A stretch of 64,000 bases of DNA from an uncultured virus (IMG/VR IMGVR_UViG_3300024261_000008) (Duplodnaviria > Heunggongvirae > Uroviricota > Caudoviricetes): the IMG/VR virus record IMGVR_UViG_3300024261_000008, positions 1 through 64,000 of that record; one strand, given 5' to 3'. This document shows positions 1-32,900 of the stretch, piece by piece. The position numbers were made by a program, and so were the translations under genes. The stretch's first letter is position 1. Every line of letters starts with the position of its first letter. The notes beneath the pieces are model-generated. The model ran no database searches. It was not told the origin of the DNA and worked only from the letters and a program-made list of their open reading frames with translations.

Positions 1-45
1 CTCAAATCCAATCACAAGACTCATTAACTGTAGTAACTGTAACAT
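1..45 (-). CDS. 5' end of a small hypothetical gene running off the window (MLQLLQLMSLVIGFE...)
   Basis: ATG at 45 (minus) preceded by GAGGG; frame open to the window edge. Confidence 0.4.
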   Translation of the reverse strand, partial: MLQLLQLMSLVIGFE

Positions 46-133: not shown

Positions 134-149
134 TGGCACAATTTTCGCC
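134..149 (+). promoter_or_regulatory. sigma54-type -24/-12 element (TGGCACAATTTTCGCC) inside an imperfect palindrome 135-164
   Basis: GG-N10-GC spacing with TGGCAC; one of five related copies. Confidence 0.5.
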
Positions 150-183
150 CGAAAATTCTGTGCCGTTTCTGCCCCCTCTTACA

Positions 184-390
184 TTACCTTTGTTTGAGGC
201 TTTGATTTAATAGGTGCCGGTTTACGATAGGGTTGTTATACTTCTCAACCCTTGCTCTTTCCGCTGCTTTCTCACGATGGCCGGGATGGGCCTTATCATA
301 TGCGGCCTGTTCTGCTGCACACATCCAGATAGTACCACCTACCACACATACTACTACGAATCCGATAAATGTTGCTACTGCTTCGTTCAT
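184..390 (-). CDS. Small hypothetical protein with an N-terminal transmembrane segment
   Basis: 68 aa, hydrophobic FIGFVVVCVVGGTIW; AGGA RBS and a sigma70 promoter upstream. Confidence 0.75.
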   Translation of the reverse strand: MNEAVATFIGFVVVCVVGGTIWMCAAEQAAYDKAHPGHREKAAERARVEKYNNPIVNRHLLNQSLKQR

Positions 391-425
391 CTTATCAATC
401 CTCTGGGGTTAATGTCTTACATCCC

Positions 426-455
426 ATTATACGCATGTGATACTATACTAGTCAA
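426..455 (-). promoter_or_regulatory. sigma70-type promoter
   Basis: TTGACT-N18-TATAAT on the minus strand, just upstream of 184..390. Confidence 0.7.
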
Positions 456-477
456 GTGAAAAGTAGAAAATTTTTCG

Positions 478-493
478 GGCGAAATTTATGCCG
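478..493 (-). promoter_or_regulatory. sigma54-type element (CGGCATAAATTTCGCC)
   Basis: GG-N10-GC; nearly identical to the copy at 1220-1235. Confidence 0.5.
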
Positions 494-494
494 T

Positions 495-701
495 TTATTT
501 CCTACCTTCTTCCCTATATCGTTCGAGTAGTATAGCAGCGGCTACACGTACCCTATCGTATTTTTTATTCTCTTGATTCTCCACAAGATAACATTGTATT
601 AGAGTAGTAGGAAGGCTGTTGAGAAGGACCGTAACTGTTTTCAGGGAGGTCAAGTAGTTTGCCATCCTGTACAAGCGAAATTTACGTTTAATGTCGGTCA
701 T
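495..701 (-). CDS. Small hypothetical protein (MTDIKRKFRLY..., 68 aa)
   Basis: ATG at 701 with AAGGA RBS is a better start than 743 in the ORF track. Confidence 0.65.
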   Translation of the reverse strand: MTDIKRKFRLYRMANYLTSLKTVTVLLNSLPTTLIQCYLVENQENKKYDRVRVAAAILLERYREEGRK

Positions 702-711
702 GATAACGTCC

Positions 712-804
712 TTAGCAAATAGGGGTATAGTTCCAGAAAACACTTACAACAATCACACAGCAAACAATAACAATCAGCAGCAATTCTTGATCAGACTCTC
801 TCAT
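712..804 (-). CDS. 30-aa membrane peptide (MRESDQELLLIVIVCCVIVVSVFWNYTPIC)
   Basis: Not in the ORF track. GGAG RBS, one hydrophobic helix, TTGCTT-N16-TAGAAT upstream; its stop overlaps the RBS of the next gene. Confidence 0.6.
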   Translation of the reverse strand: MRESDQELLLIVIVCCVIVVSVFWNYTPIC

Positions 805-865
805 GATGATTTCTCCGGTGTCGTTTCCAATATGTATATTCTATACTGTCCAACTTAGGAAGCAA

Positions 866-1036
866 CTATTTAACCCAATATTTTTCGGTAACTACTTCAC
901 AATGTTCACCACATCGTGGGCAGCAATCCATATCTTGTGAACCGTATTCACCACAGCAATCACTGAGGTAGTACATAGCGTACATAGGTTCTTTTTTTTC
1001 ATCACACTGAACATTTACATCAAATTTATTTAACAT
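866..1036 (-). CDS. 56-aa Cys-rich putative Zn-binding protein (SDCCG...CCPRCGEHCEV)
   Basis: Not in the ORF track; hand translated. Paralog of 1919..2104; consensus sigma54 site directly upstream. Confidence 0.75.
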   Translation of the reverse strand: MLNKFDVNVQCDEKKEPMYAMYYLSDCCGEYGSQDMDCCPRCGEHCEVVTEKYWVK

Positions 1037-1068
1037 CTTAATACCTTAACTTTCTATATATATTATAG

Positions 1069-1084
1069 TGCAAGTACTGTGCCA
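1069..1084 (-). promoter_or_regulatory. Consensus sigma54 (-24/-12) promoter TGGCAC-AGTAC-TTGCA
   Basis: Exact match to TGGCAC-N5-TTGCW, about 33 nt upstream of the ATG at 1036. Confidence 0.7.
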
Positions 1085-1145
1085 AAACTTAATTATTTTG
1101 AGCCTATAAAACAAGGGGTTTTTTAACGTGTATCAGAATAAGACT

Positions 1146-1191
1146 ATGCATAACGCTACATAATGTGCATAATGCAATGCATAATGCTACA
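1146..1191. repeat. Imperfect tandem CATAA(C/T)G repeats (4 copies) in an AT-rich intergenic region
   Basis: CATAA at 1149, 1159, 1168 and 1180. Confidence 0.6.
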
Positions 1192-1219
1192 GTGCTTGTC
1201 TCAATATGAGAAAATTTTG

Positions 1220-1235
1220 GGCGAAATTTATGCCA
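1220..1235 (-). promoter_or_regulatory. sigma54-type element (TGGCATAAATTTCGCC)
   Basis: GG-N10-GC. Confidence 0.5.
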
Positions 1236-1295
1236 AAAAAAAACACGCCGTTGTGTCAGCGTGTCTCTTCCCTATAGCCCTATAGGTTGGGTGTG

Positions 1296-1634
1296 TCAGT
1301 CTCCGAATGGTGACTGCTCACTGTCTGTCATCTTAGCATACTGCTCAATAAGTGCAGCCTTACGCTCATCACTTCCCGGCAGCCCTACCTTATTAATCAT
1401 CTTATCACATGTGTGCTGTGGCTGTGTTGATACACTAGCCGACTCATACAATGCTTTACGATTAAACTTATTTACTCTTTCACACTTAACAGTACTACCA
1501 TCAGCAGTACTCTTATCTGTCATGTATGCCATGCCCGACCATATGGTATGTACCTGTCGCAGTGCATCGCGTGTGATGTCGTGTTGGTTCATCATGTTCT
1601 CACACTTAGCAATAATCATATCTGCATTAATCAT
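1296..1634 (-). CDS. Hypothetical protein (MINADMIIAK..., 112 aa)
   Basis: ATG at 1634 overlaps (ATGA) the stop of 1631..1741. Confidence 0.7.
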   Translation of the reverse strand: MINADMIIAKCENMMNQHDITRDALRQVHTIWSGMAYMTDKSTADGSTVKCERVNKFNRKALYESASVSTQPQHTCDKMINKVGLPGSDERKAALIEQYAKMTDSEQSPFGD

Positions 1635-1741
1635 TCGTTCACCTTGCTTTCTTCCCAAGTATTACCATTCGCTATTGATGGCTTATCGTTACCACCTATC
1701 AATACATATACGCTACCTTCTTGTGGCTTATCCTTATTCAT
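1631..1741 (-). CDS. 36-aa hypothetical peptide (MNKDKPQEGSVYVLIGG...)
   Basis: GAGGAGG RBS and ATGA overlaps at both ends; not in the ORF track. Confidence 0.6.
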   Translation of the reverse strand: MNKDKPQEGSVYVLIGGNDKPSIANGNTWEESKVNE

Positions 1742-1866
1742 CGTGCATCCTCCTCAAATATTGCATCACCGCATCGATCAACTGCGATACCCTCATCATT
1801 AATAAAGATATCACCATTACGCACACCTTCGATTATAATCTCATTTTTTTCTACATCATCAAACAT
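1738..1866 (-). CDS. 42-aa acidic peptide (MFDDVEKNEIIIEGVRNGDIF...)
   Basis: GGGAG RBS and ATGA overlap with the downstream gene; not in the ORF track. Confidence 0.6.
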   Translation of the reverse strand: MFDDVEKNEIIIEGVRNGDIFINDEGIAVDRCGDAIFEEDAR

Positions 1867-1918
1867 ATCAACTCCCAACATCTAAAGTAAACCAAAATTA
1901 ATTACTACATTCATTGTA

Positions 1919-2104
1919 TCATCCAACTCCGTGCTGGTCAAGCGATGAATCAAACGCTACTACGTTACCGTCAGTATCAAAATCAATTCGATCTTCGATA
2001 ACCTCACAATGTTCGTAGCAAGTAGGGCAAAGATCAGCGTCAGAATGAACTGAAGTTCCGCAACAATCTGAAGAATAAACGATTTCGAAGTTGTTATTTG
2101 ACAT
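1919..2104 (-). CDS. 61-aa Cys-rich acidic putative Zn-binding protein (SDCCG...CPTCYEHCEV)
   Basis: Same motif as 866..1036; strong sigma70 promoter upstream. Confidence 0.8.
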   Translation of the reverse strand: MSNNNFEIVYSSDCCGTSVHSDADLCPTCYEHCEVIEDRIDFDTDGNVVAFDSSLDQHGVG

Positions 2105-2143
2105 TTTAATTTTCTTTCTAAGTTTTTTACTTGTTATACTACC

Positions 2144-2172
2144 ATTGTATACTTAATATCGTCAAAAGTCAA
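2144..2172 (-). promoter_or_regulatory. sigma70-type promoter
   Basis: TTGACT-N17-TACAAT on the minus strand. Confidence 0.75.
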
Positions 2173-2289
2173 GCCTTATCTTTAGAAAATAATTATTTCC
2201 CTATAAAAATAGATCCATTTTAGAAATATTCCATGTTGGACAGTTAGAAAGATGAGATTTACACTTCTTTTAAAGTCATTTTGGACTTT

Positions 2290-2305
2290 TGGCACAATTT
2301 TCGCA
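2290..2305 (+). promoter_or_regulatory. sigma54-type element (TGGCACAATTTTCGCA)
   Basis: GG-N10-GC; 15/16 identical to the copy at 134-149. Confidence 0.5.
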
Positions 2306-2440
2306 CGTAAGTAGGCGGGTATTCTTTAATCTCAGACGGAAGTACCTGAATGTGACGAAAACCCATGGGTGGTGCATACACAACTCAACCAGCCAGATAG
2401 AATTGGCCGGTTTCTTTTGGTTCTAGAAGCGTGATGCTTT

Positions 2441-2671
2441 TTATAAACGGCCCGCACCCTCTATGAAGTTGGCCGGTTTCTTTTCCTTCACGGGTCTACC
2501 CCGTTCTTTTTTCAGACTCAGATGCCGCCTTTGTCGCCGTACCATACTAGTAGTAATATCCTCGCCCGTCATGCTCTTTAAAACCTTGGCTAGTTCCTCA
2601 TCGCACATTGTTTTGTGGTTCGCCCGGATGTATTCCCGTTCAGCGTCAGTCCATCTTTTGTAGTTAGCCAT
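2441..2671 (-). CDS. Small basic helix-turn-helix-like DNA-binding protein
   Basis: KRWTDAEREYIR...DEELAKVL...MVRRQRR pattern; AGGA RBS; divergent from the late operon. Confidence 0.65.
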   Translation of the reverse strand: MANYKRWTDAEREYIRANHKTMCDEELAKVLKSMTGEDITTSMVRRQRRHLSLKKERGRPVKEKKPANFIEGAGRL

Positions 2672-2753: not shown

Positions 2754-2909
2754 GTGAAAAGCACGAAAAATGTTGCAAGCACCTTAAATGTGGTAGCTAG
2801 TGGACAAGTTGATGTGACTCTAGACCTAGAAAAACCCGAAGGAAAGTGCATAGCGAAACTAATAGATGAGCAAGAAGAAACGCAAAAAGAAGACAACGCT
2901 ACCGAATAA
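2754..2909 (+). CDS. 51-aa hypothetical protein (GTG start; MKSTKNVASTLNVVASG...)
   Basis: AAGGAG RBS; overlaps the start of the sigma gene; not in the ORF track. Confidence 0.55.
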   Translation: MKSTKNVASTLNVVASGQVDVTLDLEKPEGKCIAKLIDEQEETQKEDNATE

Positions 2910-3525
2910 TGTCGATGAGACAGAATTTCTACAAGTAGTAGATAATATCAGTAGACGTTTGGGACATAAATTTAAATTCGGATATCATAGCTTCGAGGAT
3001 ATGAAACAACAGTGTGCCATATTCGCCTTGGAAGGACTAAACAAATATGATAATAAACGTCCCCTAGAAAACTTCCTCTGGATTCATGTAAGAAACAGAC
3101 TCTTTAATTTCAAGAGAGATAACTACCAGCGTCCTGATAAACCCTGTTTTGTTTGCAAATTTTACGATGCCCATTGCAGTAAATCGGTCAATCAGTGTTT
3201 AGAATTTAGCGACAAGAACAACTGTGAAGAGTTTACCGCTTGGAATAATAGAAACACTAATAAAAAGAACATAATGAAACCTGTTGGAATAGAGGACTTA
3301 AAAGAGACACAAAAAAGTTTCCAAAAGAATTACGACATAGCGGAACTAGTTACAAGAAAGCAAATAATTCGCATCTTAGACGAACATGTTCCAGCCCCGT
3401 ATAGAGAAACCTACTTACGTTTGAAGTTTGGAGAACGTATTTACAAAAGCGACTTAAATAAACTACTTGAAATAACCACTAAGATATTAGAAGAACACAA
3501 TTATGACATCGAAAAAGATTCCTAA
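2866..3525 (+). CDS. Phage-encoded sigma70-family-like factor (region 2) with a Cys-rich insert
   Basis: FEDMKQQCAIFALEGLNKYD...FLWIHVRNRLFNFKR resembles sigma region 2; CxxC...C...C...C insert; region 4 looks truncated. Confidence 0.75.
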   Translation: MSKKKRKKKTTLPNNVDETEFLQVVDNISRRLGHKFKFGYHSFEDMKQQCAIFALEGLNKYDNKRPLENFLWIHVRNRLFNFKRDNYQRPDKPCFVCKFYDAHCSKSVNQCLEFSDKNNCEEFTAWNNRNTNKKNIMKPVGIEDLKETQKSFQKNYDIAELVTRKQIIRILDEHVPAPYRETYLRLKFGERIYKSDLNKLLEITTKILEEHNYDIEKDS

Positions 3526-4345
3526 AAAACGCGGAAAGCTAAGTATCGACGACGAACGCTATATACGTGAAAACGTAAGCGAACTGAGTATCGAACAAAT
3601 AGCTGATGCCATTAATAGAACTGCCAAACCCGTAGAACGCTTTATCATTGAAAACAATCTTGGGGTTAGCACCTTTACTGAACAACAAAATAATAAAACC
3701 CTGATCACTAAACTTCATAGTAAAACCTTTTGGAACGAGATCGTAAGACAATTTGATGAGACCACAGGAGAACTAGAGTACTTTGAGAATACATGGATTG
3801 GACTAATTAAGCAATTCCGTGAAGATGTGCTGCCTGCTGAAGAAATGCAGATTAAACAATTTATAACTATTGACATATTGATCAATCGTAGCATGAAAGA
3901 GCGTAAGAGACACATACAGGAGACTGAGAGACTACAACGTGAGGTAGAACAAGAATATAAACTGCCAGAAGATGTTAGAGACATCCCTAAACTGGCTAAT
4001 CTGGAAACCCAACTCAGTTTCGCTCGCAATAGCATCGCTAATTACACAAACGAATATACCAAGTTGCTTAATGAGCAACAGAAGATAAGTAAGGATTTGA
4101 AAGCAACCCGTGAGCAGCGTATCAAACGTATAGAAGATGGCAAGAGTAGTTGGATCGGACTTATCAGAATGCTAGAAGACGAAGACATTCGTGAGAAGGC
4201 AGGTCGTGAAATGGAAATCATGGCTATGGCTGTAGACAAGAGCAAAACACAACTTCGTGAACTATATCAGTATGCAGATGAAAATGTAGACAATCCACTT
4301 TTAAATTGTGACACTATGGAAGAAGAAGAGGTAAAGGATGAATAA
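3503..4345 (+). CDS. HTH plus coiled-coil protein, probable terminase small subunit
   Basis: N-terminal HTH-like (SIEQIADAINRT), long coiled coil, position upstream of TerL. Confidence 0.5.
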   Translation: MTSKKIPKKRGKLSIDDERYIRENVSELSIEQIADAINRTAKPVERFIIENNLGVSTFTEQQNNKTLITKLHSKTFWNEIVRQFDETTGELEYFENTWIGLIKQFREDVLPAEEMQIKQFITIDILINRSMKERKRHIQETERLQREVEQEYKLPEDVRDIPKLANLETQLSFARNSIANYTNEYTKLLNEQQKISKDLKATREQRIKRIEDGKSSWIGLIRMLEDEDIREKAGREMEIMAMAVDKSKTQLRELYQYADENVDNPLLNCDTMEEEEVKDE

Positions 4346-5459
4346 AACAGCAATCGTAACAGGCGTAACAGGACAAGACGGCAGCTACCTAAGCGAGCTA
4401 CTCTTATCAAAAGGATATCTTGTATATGGATGTCATCGCCGCACAAGCACACCCAGCACACACAGAATTTCTCGTATCCTGAACAATCCTGACTTTCAAC
4501 TTATAGAGTTTGATCTTACAGACCCTAGTGGAATACATGAAGTTATTAGTGGTATCAAACCACATGAATTTTATAACCTAGCCGCACAGAGTCATGTAGG
4601 AACCAGTTTTAAACAACCCAACACAACCTTTGATATTGATTGTAATGGAGTGATCCACATACTAGAAGCCATTAAACAGCACAGTCCCGGTACTCGCTTT
4701 TATCAGGCCAGCACCAGCGAAATGTTTGGTCGTAATTACTCTCAGATCACAGAAGACGGTAAAAAGTACCAAGACGAAAATACCAGCATGTTGCCTCAGA
4801 GTCCTTATGGTGTTGCTAAACTTGCCTCTCATCATATGGTCACTATCTACCGTGATGCCTACAACCTGTTCGCCACCAGTGGTATCCTATTTAACCATGA
4901 AAGCCCACGCCGTGGTGAGAACTTCGTAACTCGTAAAATTACTAAATACCTCGGAGAATATATAAAAAATCCCCATATACCAACCCTTAAACTTGGCAAC
5001 CTAGCCGCATACAGAGATTGGGGACATGCTAAGGACTACGTAAGGGCAATGCACTTGATGCTACAAGCCCCAGAACCTTCCGACTACGTAATAAGCAGTG
5101 GTGACACTTATTCTGTACAACACTTTCTAGACCTTGCATGTGAGATGGCAGGATTGGATGAAGATCAAACAGATGAGTTGTATGAAATTGATCCAGAGTT
5201 CTTTCGTCCCTGTGAAGTAGATTATCTTTGCGGCGATTCGAGCAAGGCTCGTAATGATTTGGGTTGGACTCAAGAGTACACATTTGAGAAACTCGTAGAG
5301 GACATGCTACGCCATGATTGTGGAGGTCGTGCCGACCTCGTGAAGTCTGCTAAGGCTTGTTGTGGTACAGGCAAGAAGTCCTGTCGTTCTACGAACAATA
5401 CTAGAGAAAAATTTGACCAACAGTCAAAAGACGGCTTTGGTTTTTATACCGGCAATTAA
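4338..5459 (+). CDS. gmd: GDP-mannose 4,6-dehydratase
   Basis: GVTGQDGSYL, LAAQSHV, QASTSEMFG, SPYGVAK (YxxxK), LFNHESPRRG and RDWGHA motifs. Confidence 0.97.
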   Translation: MNKTAIVTGVTGQDGSYLSELLLSKGYLVYGCHRRTSTPSTHRISRILNNPDFQLIEFDLTDPSGIHEVISGIKPHEFYNLAAQSHVGTSFKQPNTTFDIDCNGVIHILEAIKQHSPGTRFYQASTSEMFGRNYSQITEDGKKYQDENTSMLPQSPYGVAKLASHHMVTIYRDAYNLFATSGILFNHESPRRGENFVTRKITKYLGEYIKNPHIPTLKLGNLAAYRDWGHAKDYVRAMHLMLQAPEPSDYVISSGDTYSVQHFLDLACEMAGLDEDQTDELYEIDPEFFRPCEVDYLCGDSSKARNDLGWTQEYTFEKLVEDMLRHDCGGRADLVKSAKACCGTGKKSCRSTNNTREKFDQQSKDGFGFYTGN

Positions 5460-6194: not shown

Positions 6195-8223
6195 TATTAG
6201 TCAGTACGATGACGCTTGGCTTGGACTAGGCGATCTAAGCAAAATAAAGACACCTGATAACCAGATGGTTAATCGGAGCGAATATGACATCGAACATCCT
6301 GATTTGCATTTGCTTCGTATGATACGAAACCCAAGAAATCTGGGGATGACCGTTAAACTGTTGTTTGGAATCGAACTTCATCCGATCCAGATCGCAATCT
6401 TACAAGAGTTTTGGAGCAGGCCGTTTCCTATGTTTATAGCGAGTCGTGGTTTCGGTAAAAGTTTTTTGATGAGTCTTTACTGTATTCTTAAATGTACCTT
6501 TGTACCGGGAACCAAGATTGTGGTCGTTGGTGCTGGTTTTCGTCAGAGTAAGATTCTGTTTGAGTATATGGAAGGAATATGGAGAACAAGTCCCATCTTA
6601 AGAAACATCTTCAGTGGAAATAATGATGGCCCGCGTCGAGATGTTGACAGATGCACGATTCGATTGGGCGAATCATGGACTATTGCGATTCCTATGGGTG
6701 ATGGAAGTAAGATTCGAGGTTTGAGAGCCCACATTATCATCGCAGACGAGTTCGCATCAATGAGCCCCGATGTATATGAAACAGTTGTCGCCGGTTTTGC
6801 TGCGGTAAGTGCTTCTCCAATTCAGAATGTCAAAGACGAAGCTAAGAAAGAAGCAATGAAAGAAGCAGGCATTTGGACACCTGAAATGGACGAGATGAAT
6901 GTCAAGATGGGTAATCAAGCTATTATTAGTGGAACAGCAGATTACGGCTTCAAGCACTTTGCCTCGTACTGGAAACGATATAAAGCTATTGTACAGAGCC
7001 AAGGAAGCAAGTTTAAACTAGAGGAAATCTTCAAAGGCGAGGTTCCAGACAACTTTAATTGGAAGGATTATAGTGTCATTAGAATCCCGTATGACCTCAT
7101 CCCGAAGGGTTTTATGGATGACAAACAGATCGCCAGAGCCAGAGCAACGATTCATACTGGAATCTATAATATGGAATATGCGGCGTGTTTTACCGATGAC
7201 AGTGATGGGTTTTTTAAGCGTAGTCTTATTGAAAGCTGTGTGTCAAACCCGGACAAGCCAGTAGTTGTCAATGAAAAGCCGATTGTATTTGAAGCAGCAA
7301 CACAAGGCAATCCTGACTTGCAATACATTTATGGTATTGACCCCGCTTCAGAAAAAGATAATTTCTGTATAGTCGTACTGGAACTACACCCAGATCACAC
7401 AAGGATTGTTCATGTATGGACTACTAACCGAACTAATTTTAAAGACCGACAAAAGAGTGGTCTTGTAGACGAACATGATTTTTATGGCTTTTGTGCTCGA
7501 AAGATACGAAATCTTATGAAGGTCTTCCCATGTTATAGAATAGGATTAGATGCACAAGGAGGTGGAGTAGCTATTGAGGAAGCATTGCACGATCCCGCAA
7601 AATTAGAAGAGGGAGAACAATTAATTTGGCCTATTGTAGATTATGATAACCGTAAAGGCAAAGATACAGATAGTCAGGCAGGTCTACATATTCTGGAATT
7701 GTGTCAGTTCGCTAGAGCAGATTGGACAGCACAAGCGAATCATGGCCTAAGAAAGGATTTCGAAGATAAGCTACTACTGCTACCAGCTTTTGATCAACTA
7801 ACTTTAGGGCTAACTATGGATGCAGAAGGCAAAGATATTTTGAACACAGACCTGTCCAAGAATCTATATGACAATCAAACAGAGTGCATACTAGAGATAG
7901 AAGAACTAAAAAATGAGTTAACAACTATAGTTATGTCGCAGACAAGCACCAGTTCAGGAGCTAGAGACAGATGGGACACTCCAGAAGTGAAACTAAACAA
8001 TGGTAAAAAAGGACGTTTAAGGAAAGATAGATATAGTTCACTGGTTATGGCAAATATGCTAGCTAGGCAGATTAATCGACAGTTAGCACCTGTTAGTTAC
8101 GACGTTATTGGGGGAAATGCTAGTGATATTCATAAAAAGAGAGATGGTAATATGTATGTAGGTCCAGAGTGGTTTACAAAGGGTGGAGGAAATGAAGATT
8201 TTTATGGAGGGATTTACCGATAG
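6172..8223 (+). CDS. terL: Terminase large subunit
   Basis: Walker A ASRGFGKS, Walker B IIIADE, RNase H-like GIDPAS ... KDRYSS. Confidence 0.95.
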   Translation: MNSTDSLDISQYDDAWLGLGDLSKIKTPDNQMVNRSEYDIEHPDLHLLRMIRNPRNLGMTVKLLFGIELHPIQIAILQEFWSRPFPMFIASRGFGKSFLMSLYCILKCTFVPGTKIVVVGAGFRQSKILFEYMEGIWRTSPILRNIFSGNNDGPRRDVDRCTIRLGESWTIAIPMGDGSKIRGLRAHIIIADEFASMSPDVYETVVAGFAAVSASPIQNVKDEAKKEAMKEAGIWTPEMDEMNVKMGNQAIISGTADYGFKHFASYWKRYKAIVQSQGSKFKLEEIFKGEVPDNFNWKDYSVIRIPYDLIPKGFMDDKQIARARATIHTGIYNMEYAACFTDDSDGFFKRSLIESCVSNPDKPVVVNEKPIVFEAATQGNPDLQYIYGIDPASEKDNFCIVVLELHPDHTRIVHVWTTNRTNFKDRQKSGLVDEHDFYGFCARKIRNLMKVFPCYRIGLDAQGGGVAIEEALHDPAKLEEGEQLIWPIVDYDNRKGKDTDSQAGLHILELCQFARADWTAQANHGLRKDFEDKLLLLPAFDQLTLGLTMDAEGKDILNTDLSKNLYDNQTECILEIEELKNELTTIVMSQTSTSSGARDRWDTPEVKLNNGKKGRLRKDRYSSLVMANMLARQINRQLAPVSYDVIGGNASDIHKKRDGNMYVGPEWFTKGGGNEDFYGGIYR

Positions 8224-24654: not shown

Positions 24655-27600
24655 ATGGCCGTTTATAAACTAATCAAATTAAAAAGAGACTATACTGCTA
24701 ATTGGACTTTACTAAACCCTATTTTGAGTTTAGGAGAACCGGGATACGAAAGAGATACAGGCAAACTTAAAATTGGTGATGGTGTAACACCTTGGGTTGA
24801 TCTAGACTATATAAAAGTGGACATGGATGATGTAGTTATAGACCCAGATGATTTAGCAGATGTTCTTAATAATGTGCTGCAAGGTGGTTTCGGCATAGAT
24901 ATCATTTATTCTGATCCTTCAGACACTATACTCATTAGAACAACAGGGCTAGCCACCCAATCAGACTTTATTGCTTTATCTGGAGATGTAGCCAATTTAG
25001 ATTCTGCATTAATTTTTAGAGGAATCACAGACCCAACACAACTTAATTCTGCTCCAACTGATCCTGTTCCTGACAATGGAGATATGTGGATAAGTAATGC
25101 ATCAGGTCAGATAGATGGTTCATGGGTAAATCTTTCTGGTCAAGACATTGTGGTTGATCAGTTTATGCTCTATGAGGAAGACGCTAACGGCTGGGTTCTC
25201 GGTGGCAATGCAGTAGGTGTTGATCTAAGCGATTATGCTACCAAAGCAGAACTTAACAACCTACAGTATCAGGTGAATCAAAACTCAAACAATATTTCTG
25301 TCAATTATTTAGACATACAGCAGAACATAGTTGATATTATAAATCTTAAAAATTCTACAAACAATCAACAAACACAAATAGACGCACTCATACAAGCAAC
25401 TGGTCATATTCACGATCAAGACATATATCAAATTTTTAATGACCTTATCATTCTTCAAGACAATTATACAGCACTTTCAGGATATAGCGACGCAAGAGAC
25501 GATTCATTACAACAACAAATCAATGCAATATCTGGAGCGATCCCACCAGAAGTAGACCTGTCAGTAATTAGTGGTTATATTGCGGCGAATACAGCAAGCG
25601 GTGTTGTAGTTTTAGGAAAAGCAGATCAAAACAGTGACGATATTGCAACACTTAGTGGTCTTATAGACGGTGGACTAGACTTTAAGGGCTACATCAATCC
25701 TACTGTAACAGGCTCGGCCCCTTCCTTGCCGACTAATGGTGATCTTTGGATTAGTGATACTAGCGGAGTTATAGACAATGGCTGGACATGCATAGCAGGT
25801 CAAGATGTTGGTGTTAATCAGTGGATGATTTATTCTGATGATGATACCTGTTGGCAACTTGGTCCAGCAACAGATATTGACCTTAGTGCTTATGCTCTAA
25901 AGACTGAACTTAATACCGTTAGTGGTCTTGTAGATCAAAATGCTACTGATATTATTACTATTAGCGGGTTGGTTGGTAGCGGTATACCTTCAGGTCTTGT
26001 GGAATACAGCACGGGTCTAGCCATACGACACGGCAGCACTGAAGTTAGTGTTAATGAAGTTAGTGGCAATAGTGTCATTGATCTTACTAATTGGAAAATT
26101 AAAGATGGACATTTTATTCCAAACAGTAATGCGTCATTTGATCTTGGTAATGCAGAATATAAAGTTCGTCACCTGTTTTTGTCTGATAACAGTATATACA
26201 TGGGTGAAGGCAATCTGAGTGCGACTAGCGGTAGCACTGTTCTTTTATGGAATGGCGAACCTCTTGCAAAGATAACAGATATTAATACTATTATTAGTGG
26301 TGAGTTAGCCGAACAAAAACTTTTAGATTTACAAGATGTAACTTCTGACGGCCCAGTAGAACAGTACGCCGTTCCTGTTTATAATCAAGGGACTAGTGAA
26401 TACAAGGTTAAAAGACTGACCCCGTTGGAAGTCGAAGACACTTCAACACCACCGCTAGATGGATATCCTGCTGGAAGTTTAGGAAATGAACTACAAGACA
26501 TTAAGGGAGACATTCAATCTAATACTATCCTTATTAGTGGTATCGCTGAAGATATTGTAGAAATACCAGATGCAGTTATATTCAAGGGTGTTACTGATCC
26601 TACAGTTAGTGGCTCTGCACCTGCTGGCCCCGACAATGGAGATATGTGGGTTAGTAATAATAGCGGACTTATTGATGGTAGTTGGACAGGTCTAAGCGGA
26701 GAAGATGTATTAGAAAATCAATTCTTGCTTTACTCTACAGGATTAAACGTATGGTTGAGGGGTGGTAAGATTGATGTAAGCGATCTTTCTGATCAATATC
26801 TACCTCTTACGGGTAATTTAAATCCCAACGATCAAAAACTAGATGCAGTAGCATTTACTAGTAATGTTGTGACAACAAGTATAAGTGGTTTATATCCTTC
26901 GTCCAGATATATAGGCAATTTAACTTACATAAATCATCCAAACCAGCCTCTACCTGTAGCAGCACAAGTTTACGGTCCTTCAGAATTTAATGTAAACCGT
27001 TCAGACTACAGCCGAGATTGGAAAGACGGTATAGATTATGGTTTTGATTGTGTCAGCATACTGTATGAGAATGAGGATATTCCTGAAGCAGGTTATTCTT
27101 GGAGTATTAAGGTTGGCCCTCCATCAAAATATTTTCCTAGTGGAATAGCAAACAATGGAAAGCCTTATCAACAAAACAGATATCGTGATCCAAATCCTAA
27201 AGGCTGGAATCCTGCTTTTCTTGCACAAAGAGCAGCAATTAGAGGACAAGGTGCTTTTGAATTTCGTCCATATGTGACGACGGCAAGTCAGGATATGACG
27301 ACTGCTCCTTACCAAGTAGGTTTCAGGTCTTGTCCACAAAATGATATAGAGTTTTACAAAGTATACGCGAACGAGCCGAGTGCAACTCCAACCTATATAG
27401 GTTTTCATTCTGATCCTAGACAACAAGTTTTTGATAATGGCCCGATTGGTAGTTCTACAAAAGGTTATGCTTTGCATATCGATTTTCGGGCAGGCTCGGA
27501 TTACGAATTATTCCAAGGAACAGGTCACGGAAGAGTTTATGGCTTTTTTGCTGATATGTTAAACAAAGGAGGAGCAAATGTTGCAGGCTTTATTGAAAGA

Positions 27601-30600
27601 GGTGCAGAGTTTAATCAGTTGCAGGCTCCTACAGTATTCGGTGCTGACACAATCTATGGAGGTTCCAATCCATTTGACTCAGCAAATATCTACAAACCAA
27701 CAGATCAGATCGACATTGCTCAGGGTGGCCTACGAATCCGTAATGCCAAACTCGTGCAAGAGTCCACAAGTGGCAATCCCGGTCAAATAGGTTGGGATCA
27801 GAACGGTCTACTTTGCTATACAAGTTCAAGTTGGAAACGTGCTCCATTGCTTCGTTTCACAACTACTGTAAGCAATCCTACACTTGATAGTGTTGCACTT
27901 ATTGTTGATGGCAATGCTAAACTTACTGCAACTGCAAACGATCTTCAAGCAGCAGCAGGCTATGTTCCACAGACTGATAATAGTCTTGTGACTAAGGGTA
28001 GCATGGAAGATGGCACTGTGAAGGCTAAATTACCAATCGCAGGCGTTGACGGCACTGTTACACTGCTTGGTGCAAATAACATATTTAGTGTGTATAATGC
28101 TGGTAGTGAAAGTTTTATTATTAGTGCAGATCAACATATTGGCTTAGGAATGACTCCTGCCAGTAACGTACTACTTGATGGTACTACTGATCAGGCATTT
28201 GTTTACAGGTTCAAGAGCACCAACACCGGACTATACGATGGTCGCTTTGGTACTAGAATCGAAAGCACTGAGTATATAAACTTTATTGTTGAGACAGTGG
28301 TTGACCCACAACAACAAACTTATGGTTTATGGGGTGGCAACAGTGGTGGAAGTAGTCCAATTATAGTAGGTAGTCAGACTGCCGATGTTCTTATCAGGTC
28401 TACTGGACCTACTGCTGATCAGTTTATCAGATTTGATCTTCCTGTCATCAGTGGTCAAACTGGTGGTAGTATGGTTATTCCTGCTGGCAACAGTGTTCCT
28501 GCAAATCTACTTATAGGTGGCACAGGAGAGAATCCAAAGAGTTCCTTTACTATCTGTGCAAAGGCTGGTGGCAGTGCTGTAACCAATCCTCAAAGTGTGG
28601 TTTGGGCATCTCACATGGATGGAGATCAGTATAGTGGTAGTGCTTACTTTAAGTTGGCACATGGTGACGATGGTAATAATAGCCAACTATCTTACTGGAA
28701 TATTTTTGCCAGTACTCCAACAGACATTACAGATGCTAGTGGTGTTTATGAACGTACAGATTATACGTTTAGAATAGCCGGTACTGTAGCGAAAAGTACT
28801 GACGGGTCTGCTCCCGGTACTGTTAATTACATCACCTGTGTTGAATCTACAGACACAAATCATTGTAAAGTTCAGATAAATCGAGATGTAGAATTTTTGT
28901 CGGCTGTTAGTGGTATCAATATTAGTAATCTGGACGATGTTGAATTTCCAGTTGGACCTAGCCCAGTTTCAGCAGATCAAATACTGCGTTACTCTACCCT
29001 TAACAACAAATGGGTTAATAGCAATGCAGGAAATGCAGTACTAGGCAGTGCTCCTCTTGGTGGCTGGCCTGTTGGCTCAGTCGGTGAGGCTATTGCTAAT
29101 GGTGCTGGTGCTGCCACTCTTCCGATTAGTAGTGTTGATAACAACCTTGAAATCAGTCAAGTAGACACTAAATCGTTTGGCTTTAATATCCAAGGTTCGA
29201 CTGCTGTAGAAATATCACAAAATAACGGCAGTAACTCACCTACTATAAAGATTGGTGACCCTCACTCATTTGGAACTCCGGGTATTAGCACATATAACAG
29301 TGGAACTTTAGGTAGCAGTCAATCACACTATCGCTTGGTAAGTCCAACAGGCACAGATGGTACTGGTCAAAACTATACCTATCTTGGTGTTACGAACCCA
29401 ACTTTCAGTTCTGCCGGAACTGTACTAACTGGTGGCACAGCCTATGTTGCTAGTCAAAGAGACATGGTTGTTGGTGCAGGTATCGATATCAACGATGTCA
29501 CTAGAGCAATCAAGTTTAATGTTGGCAATTGGGCTGAAGTTAACACTGAAATGAAGATAGAACGCAACAAGGTCATGACAAGACCAGCATACAACTACTG
29601 GGCTTGTGGTAACAATTATGATATTGAAAGTTCTAAGTTCTACCTACATTACAGAGGAGATACTTCTAAATACCAAGTTGGTGTTGGCATACCTCCTAGT
29701 CAAGCACAGCCTGCTAGTGACTTTGTAGTAGGAAGTACTGTTTCTGGTAGTTCAACAATCTCTACTATTCAAAGTCGAGGTTTTGCAACTATTCAGTATA
29801 ATCAGTTTAGAGGTGATGATGGTTACTTGAATATCTCTCGTCAAAATCAAAATGGTGTAATCAGTTTTGCGAGCAATGAAGACTCAACTGGCAGAGGGGC
29901 CGAGAACATCATGCAGTTCGTGCCTACTACGCAAGCCATAAGAATGAATTATAATGTTGGTTTAAATTGTGCTGTGGGTGATACAAGACTACAGGTAGAA
30001 AATCCCGGTGCCAGTGGTACTCAAACCGTTTACGGTATGATTGTTGGTGGCAACATGGGTGCTACCTCAATTATTACCAATGCAAGTTGCAGACAAGATC
30101 AGACTACTGCTGCTGGTTTCTATTCCTATAATAGTGTGTCAGCAAATGTAACTTTGGGAACACTATATTGCTTCAGAGCAGATTCACCAAACACTCTAGC
30201 AGGAGATGTAAATTCTCATGTAGGCTTCTATGCTGGTCAAGGTATTAAACATGGTGCTGGTAACAGTATAGGCTTCAGTTCGGCTGTACCAAGTGGAGAG
30301 AGCAACTGGGCATTCTTTAGTAATACTCCCGGTACTCAATCTTACATGAAAGGCAATGTTGGAATTGGTTCGAACCAAAGTAAACCAGCCTACAAACTTT
30401 GTGTAGCAGCAGAAGAAGATGACACTTACACTTTAAGAGTTGGTAATAATGCTGGTGGAGCAGGTAATATTAGAGGTACTACAAGAATTGGTATAGATGC
30501 ATTTGGTCCAACAAACACCCATTCTTCTGTAGCACTGATGGTTAATCAGCACAATACCACTAGTAGTTTTCAGGGTGATCTACACATCCAAATGAGACAG

Positions 30601-31308
30601 GATCAGACTGACTCACTACCAGTAAGTAAGTTTGTATTTACTCCTGAAGGTAACTTTGGTGTTAACGCTAGTGGAGTGTCAGAAGCCCTAGTAGCACTTG
30701 ATGTTAACAGTGACAGGATAGCCATTAGAGACGAATATACTCCTAATGCACTTTCAGCAGGTACAATCGGTGAAATTGGCTGGGATGAAGACTATATCTG
30801 GGTCAGAACACCCGCAGGCTGGAAGAAATCTGCACTTGATACATTTAATGGCAGCGGCAGTTCTTCAAGTGTTGTAAGAGGTTCTGTTGCTGCAACAGGA
30901 ACTCAGACAGACTTTACTGTTACTGAAGGCTATACTGCTAATCAGTTAGATGTTTATGTCAACGGTGTCAAGATGCTTGATACCACAGACTACACTGCCT
31001 CAAACGGTTCCACAATCGTTCTAGCAACGCCTGCTGCTAGTGGAGATATTGTACAGTATACAGCATACTCAAACGTAAGTGTTACACTAGCAACACAAGC
31101 AGGCACTCCACTATCATCTAGTGATGCTGGAAGTATTGGCGATATTAAGCATAGCGACCATTATATATGGGTTAAGACAAGTGCAGGTTGGAAGAAATCT
31201 CCACTATATGCCTTTAACCAAACTCCTAGTTTGACCGTTCGTGTGACTCAGGCTGAGTATGATGCTCTGACCCCTGATTCTGATATAACTTATGTAATTG
31301 TGGGGTAA
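24655..31308 (+). CDS. 2217-aa fibre protein (Mtd_N-like start, internal repeats, C-terminal TQAEYDAL motif)
   Basis: Three FxG..DPT..SAP..P.NGDxW repeats; three G.IG.D...GWK repeats; one YVNGVKM domain. Confidence 0.88.
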   Translation: MAVYKLIKLKRDYTANWTLLNPILSLGEPGYERDTGKLKIGDGVTPWVDLDYIKVDMDDVVIDPDDLADVLNNVLQGGFGIDIIYSDPSDTILIRTTGLATQSDFIALSGDVANLDSALIFRGITDPTQLNSAPTDPVPDNGDMWISNASGQIDGSWVNLSGQDIVVDQFMLYEEDANGWVLGGNAVGVDLSDYATKAELNNLQYQVNQNSNNISVNYLDIQQNIVDIINLKNSTNNQQTQIDALIQATGHIHDQDIYQIFNDLIILQDNYTALSGYSDARDDSLQQQINAISGAIPPEVDLSVISGYIAANTASGVVVLGKADQNSDDIATLSGLIDGGLDFKGYINPTVTGSAPSLPTNGDLWISDTSGVIDNGWTCIAGQDVGVNQWMIYSDDDTCWQLGPATDIDLSAYALKTELNTVSGLVDQNATDIITISGLVGSGIPSGLVEYSTGLAIRHGSTEVSVNEVSGNSVIDLTNWKIKDGHFIPNSNASFDLGNAEYKVRHLFLSDNSIYMGEGNLSATSGSTVLLWNGEPLAKITDINTIISGELAEQKLLDLQDVTSDGPVEQYAVPVYNQGTSEYKVKRLTPLEVEDTSTPPLDGYPAGSLGNELQDIKGDIQSNTILISGIAEDIVEIPDAVIFKGVTDPTVSGSAPAGPDNGDMWVSNNSGLIDGSWTGLSGEDVLENQFLLYSTGLNVWLRGGKIDVSDLSDQYLPLTGNLNPNDQKLDAVAFTSNVVTTSISGLYPSSRYIGNLTYINHPNQPLPVAAQVYGPSEFNVNRSDYSRDWKDGIDYGFDCVSILYENEDIPEAGYSWSIKVGPPSKYFPSGIANNGKPYQQNRYRDPNPKGWNPAFLAQRAAIRGQGAFEFRPYVTTASQDMTTAPYQVGFRSCPQNDIEFYKVYANEPSATPTYIGFHSDPRQQVFDNGPIGSSTKGYALHIDFRAGSDYELFQGTGHGRVYGFFADMLNKGGANVAGFIERGAEFNQLQAPTVFGADTIYGGSNPFDSANIYKPTDQIDIAQGGLRIRNAKLVQESTSGNPGQIGWDQNGLLCYTSSSWKRAPLLRFTTTVSNPTLDSVALIVDGNAKLTATANDLQAAAGYVPQTDNSLVTKGSMEDGTVKAKLPIAGVDGTVTLLGANNIFSVYNAGSESFIISADQHIGLGMTPASNVLLDGTTDQAFVYRFKSTNTGLYDGRFGTRIESTEYINFIVETVVDPQQQTYGLWGGNSGGSSPIIVGSQTADVLIRSTGPTADQFIRFDLPVISGQTGGSMVIPAGNSVPANLLIGGTGENPKSSFTICAKAGGSAVTNPQSVVWASHMDGDQYSGSAYFKLAHGDDGNNSQLSYWNIFASTPTDITDASGVYERTDYTFRIAGTVAKSTDGSAPGTVNYITCVESTDTNHCKVQINRDVEFLSAVSGINISNLDDVEFPVGPSPVSADQILRYSTLNNKWVNSNAGNAVLGSAPLGGWPVGSVGEAIANGAGAATLPISSVDNNLEISQVDTKSFGFNIQGSTAVEISQNNGSNSPTIKIGDPHSFGTPGISTYNSGTLGSSQSHYRLVSPTGTDGTGQNYTYLGVTNPTFSSAGTVLTGGTAYVASQRDMVVGAGIDINDVTRAIKFNVGNWAEVNTEMKIERNKVMTRPAYNYWACGNNYDIESSKFYLHYRGDTSKYQVGVGIPPSQAQPASDFVVGSTVSGSSTISTIQSRGFATIQYNQFRGDDGYLNISRQNQNGVISFASNEDSTGRGAENIMQFVPTTQAIRMNYNVGLNCAVGDTRLQVENPGASGTQTVYGMIVGGNMGATSIITNASCRQDQTTAAGFYSYNSVSANVTLGTLYCFRADSPNTLAGDVNSHVGFYAGQGIKHGAGNSIGFSSAVPSGESNWAFFSNTPGTQSYMKGNVGIGSNQSKPAYKLCVAAEEDDTYTLRVGNNAGGAGNIRGTTRIGIDAFGPTNTHSSVALMVNQHNTTSSFQGDLHIQMRQDQTDSLPVSKFVFTPEGNFGVNASGVSEALVALDVNSDRIAIRDEYTPNALSAGTIGEIGWDEDYIWVRTPAGWKKSALDTFNGSGSSSSVVRGSVAATGTQTDFTVTEGYTANQLDVYVNGVKMLDTTDYTASNGSTIVLATPAASGDIVQYTAYSNVSVTLATQAGTPLSSSDAGSIGDIKHSDHYIWVKTSAGWKKSPLYAFNQTPSLTVRVTQAEYDALTPDSDITYVIVG

Positions 31309-32432: not shown

Positions 32433-32900
32433 ATGCCTGCTGCAAATTATAATTTTACTATAGAGCAAGGTTCATCCTTCGCTATCTCTTTTCAATATTT
32501 AGACAATGAGCAAAACCCCATTGATATCACCAACTGGTGTGCAAGGTTACGCTGGAAAGAAGATGTTATTGATCCTGACACTGGAATCAATAGAATCAGA
32601 ACATTTGTCACTCCCACAATAAGTGCTGAGTATGCTTTTACCACCATCCCAAAAGAAGGTAAAATGATTCTCAAAATTCCTGCTGATGAAACCGCTAGCT
32701 ATGATTTCAACACAGCAAATTATGACTTAGAGTTGCAGGAGCCTAATGACCTATATAGTGGTGGTGGCAAGATTGTGTTTAGAATCTTACAAGGTATCGT
32801 TACCTTGACTAGACCAAATGTTCCTGATCCTGATCAACCATTTGATTGTGATCCTGACGCTAATAATCCAGACGTACACCCCGGTTGTGGAACCTGTTAA
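32433..32900 (+). CDS. Fibre adaptor protein, paralog of 13739..14146
   Basis: YNFTIEQGSSF...PIDITNWCARL...YDLEL. Confidence 0.7.
   Translation: MPAANYNFTIEQGSSFAISFQYLDNEQNPIDITNWCARLRWKEDVIDPDTGINRIRTFVTPTISAEYAFTTIPKEGKMILKIPADETASYDFNTANYDLELQEPNDLYSGGGKIVFRILQGIVTLTRPNVPDPDQPFDCDPDANNPDVHPGCGTC

Follow-up and report, generated by a model that had tools for sequence, protein, structure and literature searches.

In a 64,000-nucleotide stretch of DNA from an uncultured tailed phage (positions 1 to 64,000 of IMG/VR record IMGVR_UViG_3300024261_000008; here called the window), the first 2.3 kb contain five short elements that resemble the -24/-12 promoters recognized by the bacterial sigma factor sigma-54 (RpoN). 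Enhancer-dependent sigma-54 promoters are textbook bacterial elements, and phage early transcription is usually described as depending on host sigma-70 or on a phage polymerase. The question raised by this locus is whether the five elements are genuine sigma-54 sites and, if so, what they might do for the phage. Our overall account, i.e., that they are real sigma-54-type elements in an early or accessory block, with the host and the regulatory roles proposed below, has in our judgement a probability of about 0.55.

All five elements of the original prediction were found as written, at 134-149 (plus strand), 478-493 (minus), 1069-1084 (minus), 1220-1235 (minus) and 2290-2305 (plus), and they are referred to here as copies 1 to 5 in that order. 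As had been claimed, each of the five is intergenic and has exact GG-N10-GC spacing. The pattern GGCAYANNNNTYGC had five matches in the window, compared with a mean of 0.21 in 100 dinucleotide-preserving shuffles, none of which reached five. In the whole 128,183-base record it matched only those five sites, all inside the first 2.3 kb. The scan against shuffled sequence that had been proposed thus revealed enrichment of this specific pattern, but not of a loose consensus: with one mismatch to TGGCACN5TTGCW allowed there was no window-wide enrichment (5 matches, 2.26 expected, with 11 of the 100 shuffles reaching 5). The non-random signal is a specific cluster, not a genome-wide excess. The extended consensus TGGCAC-N5-TTGCW is exact in copy 3, and the other four copies have TCGC.

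Copy 3 had been described as a perfect RpoN consensus directly ahead of a gene, and this description was correct: it is an exact TGGCAC-N5-TTGCA, with 34 nt from its GC to the ATG of the gene at 1036-866. The features of this region are as follows.

1069 to 1084, minus strand: copy 3, exact -24/-12 element TGGCACAGTACTTGCA, predicted sigma-54 promoter of zinc-ribbon gene B; exact consensus, aligned in 13 relatives.
1146 to 1189, no strand assigned: three 13-bp TTGCA-N3-TGCAA-like palindromes (1177-1189, 1165-1177 and 1146-1158), candidate sites for a bacterial enhancer-binding protein (bEBP), with centres at -125, -113 and -94 from the predicted start.
1100 to 1118, minus strand: A/T-rich block CCCCTTGTTTTATAGGCTC between the enhancer-type sites and the promoter, conserved in the alignment.
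866 to 1036, minus strand: zinc-ribbon gene B, 56 amino acids, downstream of copy 3, from a family found in 71 IMG/VR loci.

An alignment of the zinc-ribbon family was used to fetch the 71 IMG/VR loci. Within 330 bp upstream of the zinc-ribbon homologs, TGGCAY-N5-TTGC was present in 22 of 57 distinct regions, and 13 of those 22 could be aligned with the window across ~155 nt. In this alignment of 14 sequences (including the window), TGGCA, TTGCA and the GCA/TGC cores of all three palindromes were invariant, whereas the 5-nt spacer was variable (CAGTA, CGCTA, CGATA, CGCCG, TAGTA, CGGTG, CACCG). This is the pattern expected if proteins contact the two blocks and the palindromes, but not the spacer. 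The copy 3 ortholog in another contig, L259, likewise retained both blocks with an altered spacer. In L010/L011, whose large terminase subunit (TerL) is 75% identical, the same layout stands ahead of a zinc-ribbon homolog, with the promoter TGGCATAGTAATTGCA and sites at -131, -119 and -100; the internal spacing of the sites (12 and 19 bp) is identical in the window and L010, and one L010 site is an exact TTGCAAAATGCAA. In L247 (~80% identical), copy 3 and the activator-type sites are replaced by a sigma-70-type promoter, TTGACA-17-TATACT. Judging from these comparisons, copy 3 is likely to be a genuine enhancer-dependent sigma-54 promoter. The A/T-rich block is a possible bending site, a function that we infer only; no consensus for IHF was shown at 1100-1118.

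The spacing between the two blocks was counted in 70 of the zinc-ribbon loci, i.e., those remaining when a near-identical one was left out (204,660 bases, searched on both strands, with duplicates of a context ignored). These loci had been fetched by protein similarity, and were therefore not selected for the motif. TGGCAY-Nn-TTGC occurred 85 times with n = 5, and only 0 to 3 times with each other value of n from 1 to 10. The geometry of the elements, their conservation and the specificity of their spacing are in this sense direct observations. The consensus of 77 elements in the relatives was TTTTGGCAC[G/A]..ATTTGC[A/T]. In five whole related records there were 15 matches, which were clustered, compared with one in the reversed control, and many elements in the relatives formed tandem or back-to-back pairs directly upstream of sigma-70-type promoters.

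More distant relatives also contain pairs of perfect CTGCCAAAATGGCAG palindromes 12-14 bp apart (L217, 411-436 and 1301-1326; L223; L227; L229, 1301-1326 and 2941-2966). These pairs adjoin tandem, outward-facing -24/-12 elements and stand before each sigma-70-type early promoter, making up a repeated intergenic cassette.

Palindromes like those upstream of copy 3 occur outside the phage. The sequence TTGCAWWWTGCAA is the LuxO enhancer site at Vibrio qrr promoters, according to passages in two papers (PMC10162802, PMC3352281) and the site table of a third (PMC10328515). The exact site in L010 is identical to the LuxO site of V. cholerae qrr1, and the window sites carry 1-3 mismatches. When one genome per prokaryotic species was scanned for such a site followed 75-105 bp later by TGGCAY-N5-TTGCA, the architecture was found in at least 120 loci, compared with a chance expectation of ~2 (a rough estimate of our own), in Planctomycetota, Verrucomicrobiota, Clostridia, several classes of Pseudomonadota and others; none of the 80 titles among the matches listed was from Vibrio. 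Many of the bacterial loci had two sites 31-34 bp apart; in the phage, 31 bp separate the two outer sites. Eight genes behind the architecture were tested: four encoded proteins with the Nitro_FeMo-Co domain, one a pilin-type N-terminus, one a PTA_PTB enzyme, one a BKACE enzyme and one a protein with no Pfam match. In the order containing the candidate host, 3 of 51 genomes had the architecture, compared with none in the reversed control. Because the architecture is spread over many phyla and is not specific to Vibrio, we read the phage palindromes as putative sites for a host activator ATPase of a widespread class, and not for LuxO. A reading in terms of LuxO and Vibrio quorum sensing was dropped in view of this distribution and of the DUF1559 gene carried by the phage.

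The factors required at such a promoter would have to come from the host. The sigma-54 DNA-binding domain (PF04552) was not found in six phage records (that of the window and five related ones, the latter including two with a 100% completeness rating). Nor was the activator ATPase domain (PF00158) found in the window's record, and the relatives gave only one weak AAA+ match, in record G408. With no phage sigma-54 domain and no clear bEBP ATPase domain found, host factors are therefore needed. A clue to the host came from a DUF1559 protein whose N-terminus has a prepilin-type methylation motif (PF07596, E = 1.1e-46; G000 109042-110115, minus strand, beyond the window, equivalent to locus L167:1042-2115). 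DUF1559 was present in four of the five related phage records and absent from all 14 control genomes, while a genome titled Thermoguttaceae had 35 matches, the best being nearly full length with 38% identity. This distribution points to hosts in the Planctomycetota, and DUF1559, which may be an auxiliary gene, serves as the host hint. A sigma-54 role would, according to the original prediction, imply a host containing rpoN; when five genomes of candidate host groups (Planctomycetota and Verrucomicrobiota) were examined, the sigma-54 DNA-binding domain was present in four. Planctomycetia are predicted to have a sigma-54 regulon in a published survey, as stated in a passage of that paper (PMC12316311).

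In the mechanism that we propose for copy 3, TGGCAC-N5-TTGCA would be occupied by the host sigma-54 holoenzyme as a closed complex. The three palindromes ~95-125 bp upstream would hold a host activator ATPase (bEBP), which would reach this complex by looping over the A/T-rich block and would open the promoter by hydrolysing ATP. Zinc-ribbon gene B would then be transcribed from ~12 nt past the GC, and would be made only while a host signalling pathway was active. Every one of these biochemical steps is drawn from what is established for the enhancer-dependent class of sigma-54 promoter; it is by that analogy that we infer sigma-54 binding, the activator, the start sites and the regulatory outcome. 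The TCGC sites, which adjoin sigma-70-type early promoters in either orientation, would most likely be bound by the same holoenzyme. Bound in this way, they would serve either as auxiliary sigma-54 promoters, those at copies 1 and 5 running antisense, or as parked closed complexes with a modulating effect on the promoters beside them. The proposal that the phage ties early expression to the state of host sigma-54 is partly supported by the geometry, the strict spacing and the enhancer layout at copy 3, found in 13 other contigs.

The cluster, with its four TCGC copies, is set in the first 2.7 kb of the window. Small leftward genes follow one another there, beginning at a divergent promoter region at ~2672-2753, with strong sigma-70-type promoters (TTGACT-17-TACAAT at 2172-2144, TTGACC-17-TACAAT at 1941-1913, and another at 2690-2717). 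From its gene layout and these promoters the block looks like an early or accessory region, in agreement with the earlier designation of it as early. The TCGC copies and their neighbours are as follows.

134 to 164, plus strand: copy 1, TGGCACAATTTTCGCC, left arm of a 30-bp near-palindrome at 135-164; faces against the gene at 184-390 and diverges from the next leftward promoter (~63-36).
478 to 493, minus strand: copy 2, CGGCATAAATTTCGCC, 23 nt upstream of the -35 box of the sigma-70-type promoter at 455-426.
1220 to 1235, minus strand: copy 4, TGGCATAAATTTCGCC, directly after a terminator hairpin (1235-1265) and upstream of the enhancer-type sites.
2290 to 2305, plus strand: copy 5, TGGCACAATTTTCGCA, faces the 3' end of the helix-turn-helix (HTH) gene, with the sigma-70-type promoter of zinc-ribbon gene A in divergent orientation to it.
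426 to 455, minus strand: sigma-70-type promoter TTGACT-18-TATAAT (11/12 match) before the gene at 184-390, standing for the host-type early promoters of the block.
1919 to 2104, minus strand: zinc-ribbon gene A, 61 amino acids, paralog of B, with the sigma-70-type promoter at 2172-2144.
2441 to 2671, minus strand: small HTH-like protein, 76 amino acids, first gene of the leftward block; weak PHROG matches, homologs in L010, L012, L013 and L016.

Copies 1, 2, 4 and 5 share TGGCAY-(A/G)WWTT-TCGCC(C/A)(C/G), and none has upstream activator-type sites of its own. Copies 2 and 4, which lie upstream of promoters, are co-directional with the genes. With respect to the next leftward sigma-70-type promoter, copies 1 and 5 are directed away, and, as had been noted earlier, they run against the local leftward genes; a similar arrangement was seen for four of the five elements in L256 and for many elements of more distant relatives. 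TCGC does occur at -12 in a proven sigma-54 promoter, that of E. coli glnA, listed in one table as TGGCACAGATTTCGCT (PMC2831329). In L247, copy 4 is identical and again stands right after a terminator, copy 5 is kept as TGGCACAATTTTCGCC while its flanks diverge, and copy 1 retains TGGCAC-N5-TCGC, having lost the right arm of its palindrome; the copy 2 ortholog is TGGCATAAAATTCGGGCG. Among relatives, 18 TCGC-type contexts were listed, and by our own count 11 of these lie outside the search pattern yet keep (T/C)GGCAY-N5-TCGC. A contig 99.8% identical to the window, L246, extends 2,785 nt to the left of its start and has one additional TCGC copy there, and a different contig, from DNA run X5, has three further copies of the 134-164 element.

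A metagenome scan for the TCGC motif gave 23 loci, of which 11 were this phage or similar marine phage contigs (L246, L247, L250, L251, L255, L256, L259, L260 and L262-L264). In IMG/VR more than one TCGC copy was found only in the near-identical contig, with 20 other loci each having a single, chance-like match in an unrelated context. By this distribution the TCGC copies are a lineage-specific subfamily, TGGCAY-N5-TCGCCCG, confined to close relatives. We regard binding of the TCGC copies by sigma-54 holoenzyme as evenly balanced. They are compatible with sigma-54, and may have roles in weak, activator-gated transcription or as parked complexes.

A number of results weigh against our overall account. 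Two or more activator-type sites are present upstream of only 12 of the 77 elements in relatives that have full context, the other 65 having fewer. The sites alone are also not enriched in the record (15 with up to two mismatches, compared with ~22 in Markov controls), so the case for the phage palindromes rests on position and conservation. Among 88 distinct elements (TTGC or TCGC) in the relatives, 48 face against the local genes and 40 are on the gene strand. In the TCGC class the GC is followed by a conserved CCCG that is not needed by sigma-54, and the TCGC motif TGGCAYAAWTTTCGC was at chance level in 401 Planctomycetota genomes (2 matches, compared with 4 in the reversed control). Loss of the GG-N10-GC spacing in further copies had been named as evidence against sigma-54 sites. 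The spacing was kept in most, but at copy 2 a flipped centre has removed it from the orthologs of L246, L255, the X5 contig and L247, only L259 keeping it, and these orthologs indicate that copy 2 is not constrained as a sigma-54 site. Copy 1 is a strong hairpin (-15.1 kcal/mol, z = -5.55). Two further points are the weak AAA+ match to PF00158 in G408 and the assignment of the host, which to judge from gene content is probably a member of the Planctomycetota, from a single gene family.

Some of these results would be accounted for if a phage-encoded DNA-binding protein or transcription factor recognized the elements, their likeness to -24/-12 promoters being convergent and the sites being operators that switch the adjacent sigma-70-type early promoters. 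Most elements do lie just upstream of such promoters, often paired and often facing away from the gene, with activator-type sites at only the 12 elements mentioned above; the perfect TGCCA-N3-TGGCA palindromes beside elements in related phages are also arranged like operator pairs, and the extra bases CGCCCG conserved by the TCGC class would suit such a protein. However, the two blocks, their exact spacing and their flanking preferences fit the sigma-54 consensus, and some of the elements are preceded, at the canonical distance, by canonical enhancer sites. The candidates for a phage protein also fit badly. The sole sigma-like phage protein (2866-3525) is at best a weak relative of the sigma-70/extracytoplasmic function (ECF) family, whose -35 and -10 boxes are ~16-17 bp apart, a misfit to blocks 5 bp apart. 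The HTH protein at 2441-2671, which had been suggested as a binder of the TCGC sites, received no support, since its gene occurs in L012, L013 and L016 without such a site in the contig sequence examined. We consider a phage-encoded binder unlikely.

Somewhat less probable again is the idea that the main role of the four TCGC copies is structural or recombinational, as hairpin- or terminator-like repeats which mark the boundaries of exchangeable cassettes, their fit to sigma-54 being secondary. It draws on the hairpin formed by the 30-bp near-palindrome of copy 1, on the centre of copy 2, which flips among strains as the middle of a palindrome can, and on the hybrid flanks in L251 and L264, where the left flank belongs to one copy and the right flank to a different one. 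The cassettes between copies are present or absent among strains, several contigs end near the region, and cassettes of this kind are described, in the passages available, for T4-type phages. However, such joins may be artefacts of assembly, lying as they do at 24-31-nt exact repeats within short metagenome contigs, and copies 2 and 4 have no significant hairpin (-2.9 and -3.6 kcal/mol, z = -0.53 and -1.11). L247 has lost an arm of the copy 1 palindrome but kept TGGCAC-N5-TCGC, and the core common to all TCGC copies, TGGCAY-N5-TCGCCCG, is asymmetric. A hairpin as a feature common to all copies was rejected, being true of copy 1 only. The last alternative that we considered, a sink in which replicating phage DNA with at least five high-affinity sites per genome draws sigma-54 holoenzyme away from host regulons, appears very improbable. 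There are several sites per genome, their orientation seems irrelevant, most are without activator sites, and sigma-54 holoenzyme is known to be inactive at many sites (a passage of PMC4591121). Against this, the sites are restricted to positions upstream of promoters in the early block and not spread over the genome, and the conserved enhancer module favours real activation at some of them.

Returning to sigma-54 sites as the preferred reading, the elements can be compared with known systems. Like Vibrio qrr/LuxO and E. coli glnAp2, they have TGGCAC-N5-TTGC(W) geometry; like the former, they have 13-bp TTGCA-N3-TGCAA palindromes ~95-130 bp upstream, and like E. coli glnA, a TCGC variant of the -12 element. 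Unlike qrr and glnAp2, the phage sites are on a lytic-type genome and would drive a small zinc-ribbon protein rather than a small RNA or a metabolic gene, and the cluster adds four sites without activator sites, facing both ways. Unlike Vibrio qrr, there is no Rfam Qrr in the window, the downstream gene is protein-coding and the host is not Vibrio. The PeSL cassettes of T4-type phages, as far as the passages available describe them, are similar in having variable small genes, in a plastic region, bordered by short regulatory repeats that are conserved; however, they are composite promoter-terminator motifs, whereas the core described here has sigma-54 geometry, with a strong hairpin in copy 1 only. 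The PeSL promoter is of the sigma-70 type.

Use of sigma-54 by a phage is not without precedent: Pseudomonas phage YuA uses sigma-70 as well as sigma-54 and has one sigma-54-like promoter, according to a passage of PMC10914365. That passage concerns a single promoter, and mentions no conserved activator sites, two-way arrays or family-wide pattern. In E. coli, holoenzyme is bound at many inactive or intragenic sigma-54 sites that are not classical promoters and whose orientation is non-random (Bonocora et al., 2015; a passage of PMC4591121); as described there, those sites are chromosomal and mostly intragenic, whereas the phage sites are intergenic and adjoin sigma-70-type promoters. Effects of rpoN on Salmonella phages have been explained as metabolic. 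In the limited collection of literature searched, the only phage sigma-54 case was the single YuA promoter, and neither arrays of sigma-54 elements nor a conserved enhancer module had been reported for phage genomes. A sigma-54-like phage promoter is thus already known, while arrays and a conserved enhancer module are without report in the literature searched.

A wider reading, which we offer tentatively and with a good deal more doubt than our overall account, is that a whole clade of uncultured marine phages, probably on Planctomycetota, builds its early-gene control around host sigma-54, with a signal-dependent switch. In this clade there would be dozens of -24/-12 elements per few kb, in both orientations, beside sigma-70-type early promoters. 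The conserved enhancer module would read a host activator ATPase and turn on a zinc-ribbon protein found only in viruses, and the outward-facing elements might give sigma-54-gated antisense transcription or parked polymerase. If it were true, the phage would sense a two-component or stress pathway of the host before expressing a specific gene, the arrays of sites would represent a new means by which infection is coupled to the physiology of the host, and the signal-dependent switch between early programmes would be of a kind undescribed for any phage. The elements provide a sequence handle on a large group of uncultured marine phages, together with a first hint of their host, and the sigma-54 prediction is directly testable.

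Variation in and around the TCGC copies was also seen at other points. The polymorphism at copy 2 (478-493, compared with L246, L255, L247 and X5) changes the centre from CGCCCG to CGGGCG together with an arm of the copy 1 palindrome, which suggests gene conversion or flipping between copies. The contigs behind L001, L013 and L016 end inside or just past the small-gene region (on the side of window positions 1-14), and L246 and run X5 read through it. The small-gene region is mosaic among strains, and probably hard to assemble owing to the repeats. Between the HTH gene and zinc-ribbon gene A there is a 19-nt block, AGTTGTGTATGCACCACCC (minus strand, window 2367-2385), that is invariant in the window, L247 and L205; beside it is a hairpin with T-runs on both sides (2392-2418), with a terminator-like plus-strand site at 2392-2407, ~90 nt downstream of copy 5. 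The 2367-2418 region may be a bidirectional terminator, or the 3' part of a ~100-nt RNA begun at copy 5. A small RNA from copy 5 was considered and rejected, the predicted ~110-nt RNAs having a fold no more stable than that of shuffled sequence (z = -0.88 for the window, -0.50 for L247); the terminator-like site and the 19-nt block are the leads still left.

Other genes near the cluster are as follows. The gene at 2866-3525 (plus strand) is the first of the rightward block; its product has 48-56% identity in four relatives and a Cys-rich middle part. The protein gave only sub-threshold hints of the ECF type (TIGR02937, E = 0.047; SigW in the Protein Data Bank, E = 0.24), which make it a possible late-gene sigma factor of the phage. 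A 30-amino-acid hydrophobic peptide, MRESDQELLLIVIVCCVIVVSVFWNYTPIC, encoded at 712-804 (minus strand) and conserved in L010 (~6366-6456) and L247, is probably a real small membrane protein. The zinc-ribbon family had no Pfam, PHROG or NCBIfam match, and was found only in unannotated viral clusters.

The source is a single virus record, classed as linear and rated 86% complete by CheckV, and the window is its first half. The phage is marine, because 16 seawater or marine DNA runs each hold at least 0.8 of the sampled words of the region. Among 50,697 phage records there was no DNA or protein match to the region from cultured relatives, and the best TerL identity was only ~23%, to Bacillus phages. 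The window gave no hits in Rfam and no tRNAs with ARAGORN. RNA contigs from run X17 cover 616-766, 1277-1443, 2435-2689 and 2775-3000; such contigs give neither starts nor strand, and the parts that they do not cover are uninformative.

The rightward block (2.7-93 kb) contains the terminase, tail genes and giant open reading frames of up to 4,824 amino acids. The giant frames, of 2,217, 4,824, 3,525 and 3,030 amino acids, lie at window 24655-31308 and 32885-47359 and at G000 60561-71138 and 83318-92410, and several have tail-fibre-like N-terminal motifs. The leftward block (93-128 kb) encodes a split DnaE, DnaB, RecA, PhoH, ribonucleotide reductase and sugar-modifying enzymes, as well as a Toprim-domain protein that is likely to be the primase. 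The two parts of DnaE (DNA polymerase III alpha) are separate open reading frames at G000 103232-104848 and 105839-107713 (minus strand); the stretch separating them holds a gene for an RNase T-like exonuclease (104845-105534) together with a small gap. The sugar-modification set is sizeable, comprising GDP-mannose 4,6-dehydratase, dTDP-sugar epimerase, NAD-dependent epimerase and several glycosyltransferases, at window 4338-5459 (plus strand) and G000 123667-126027 (minus strand).

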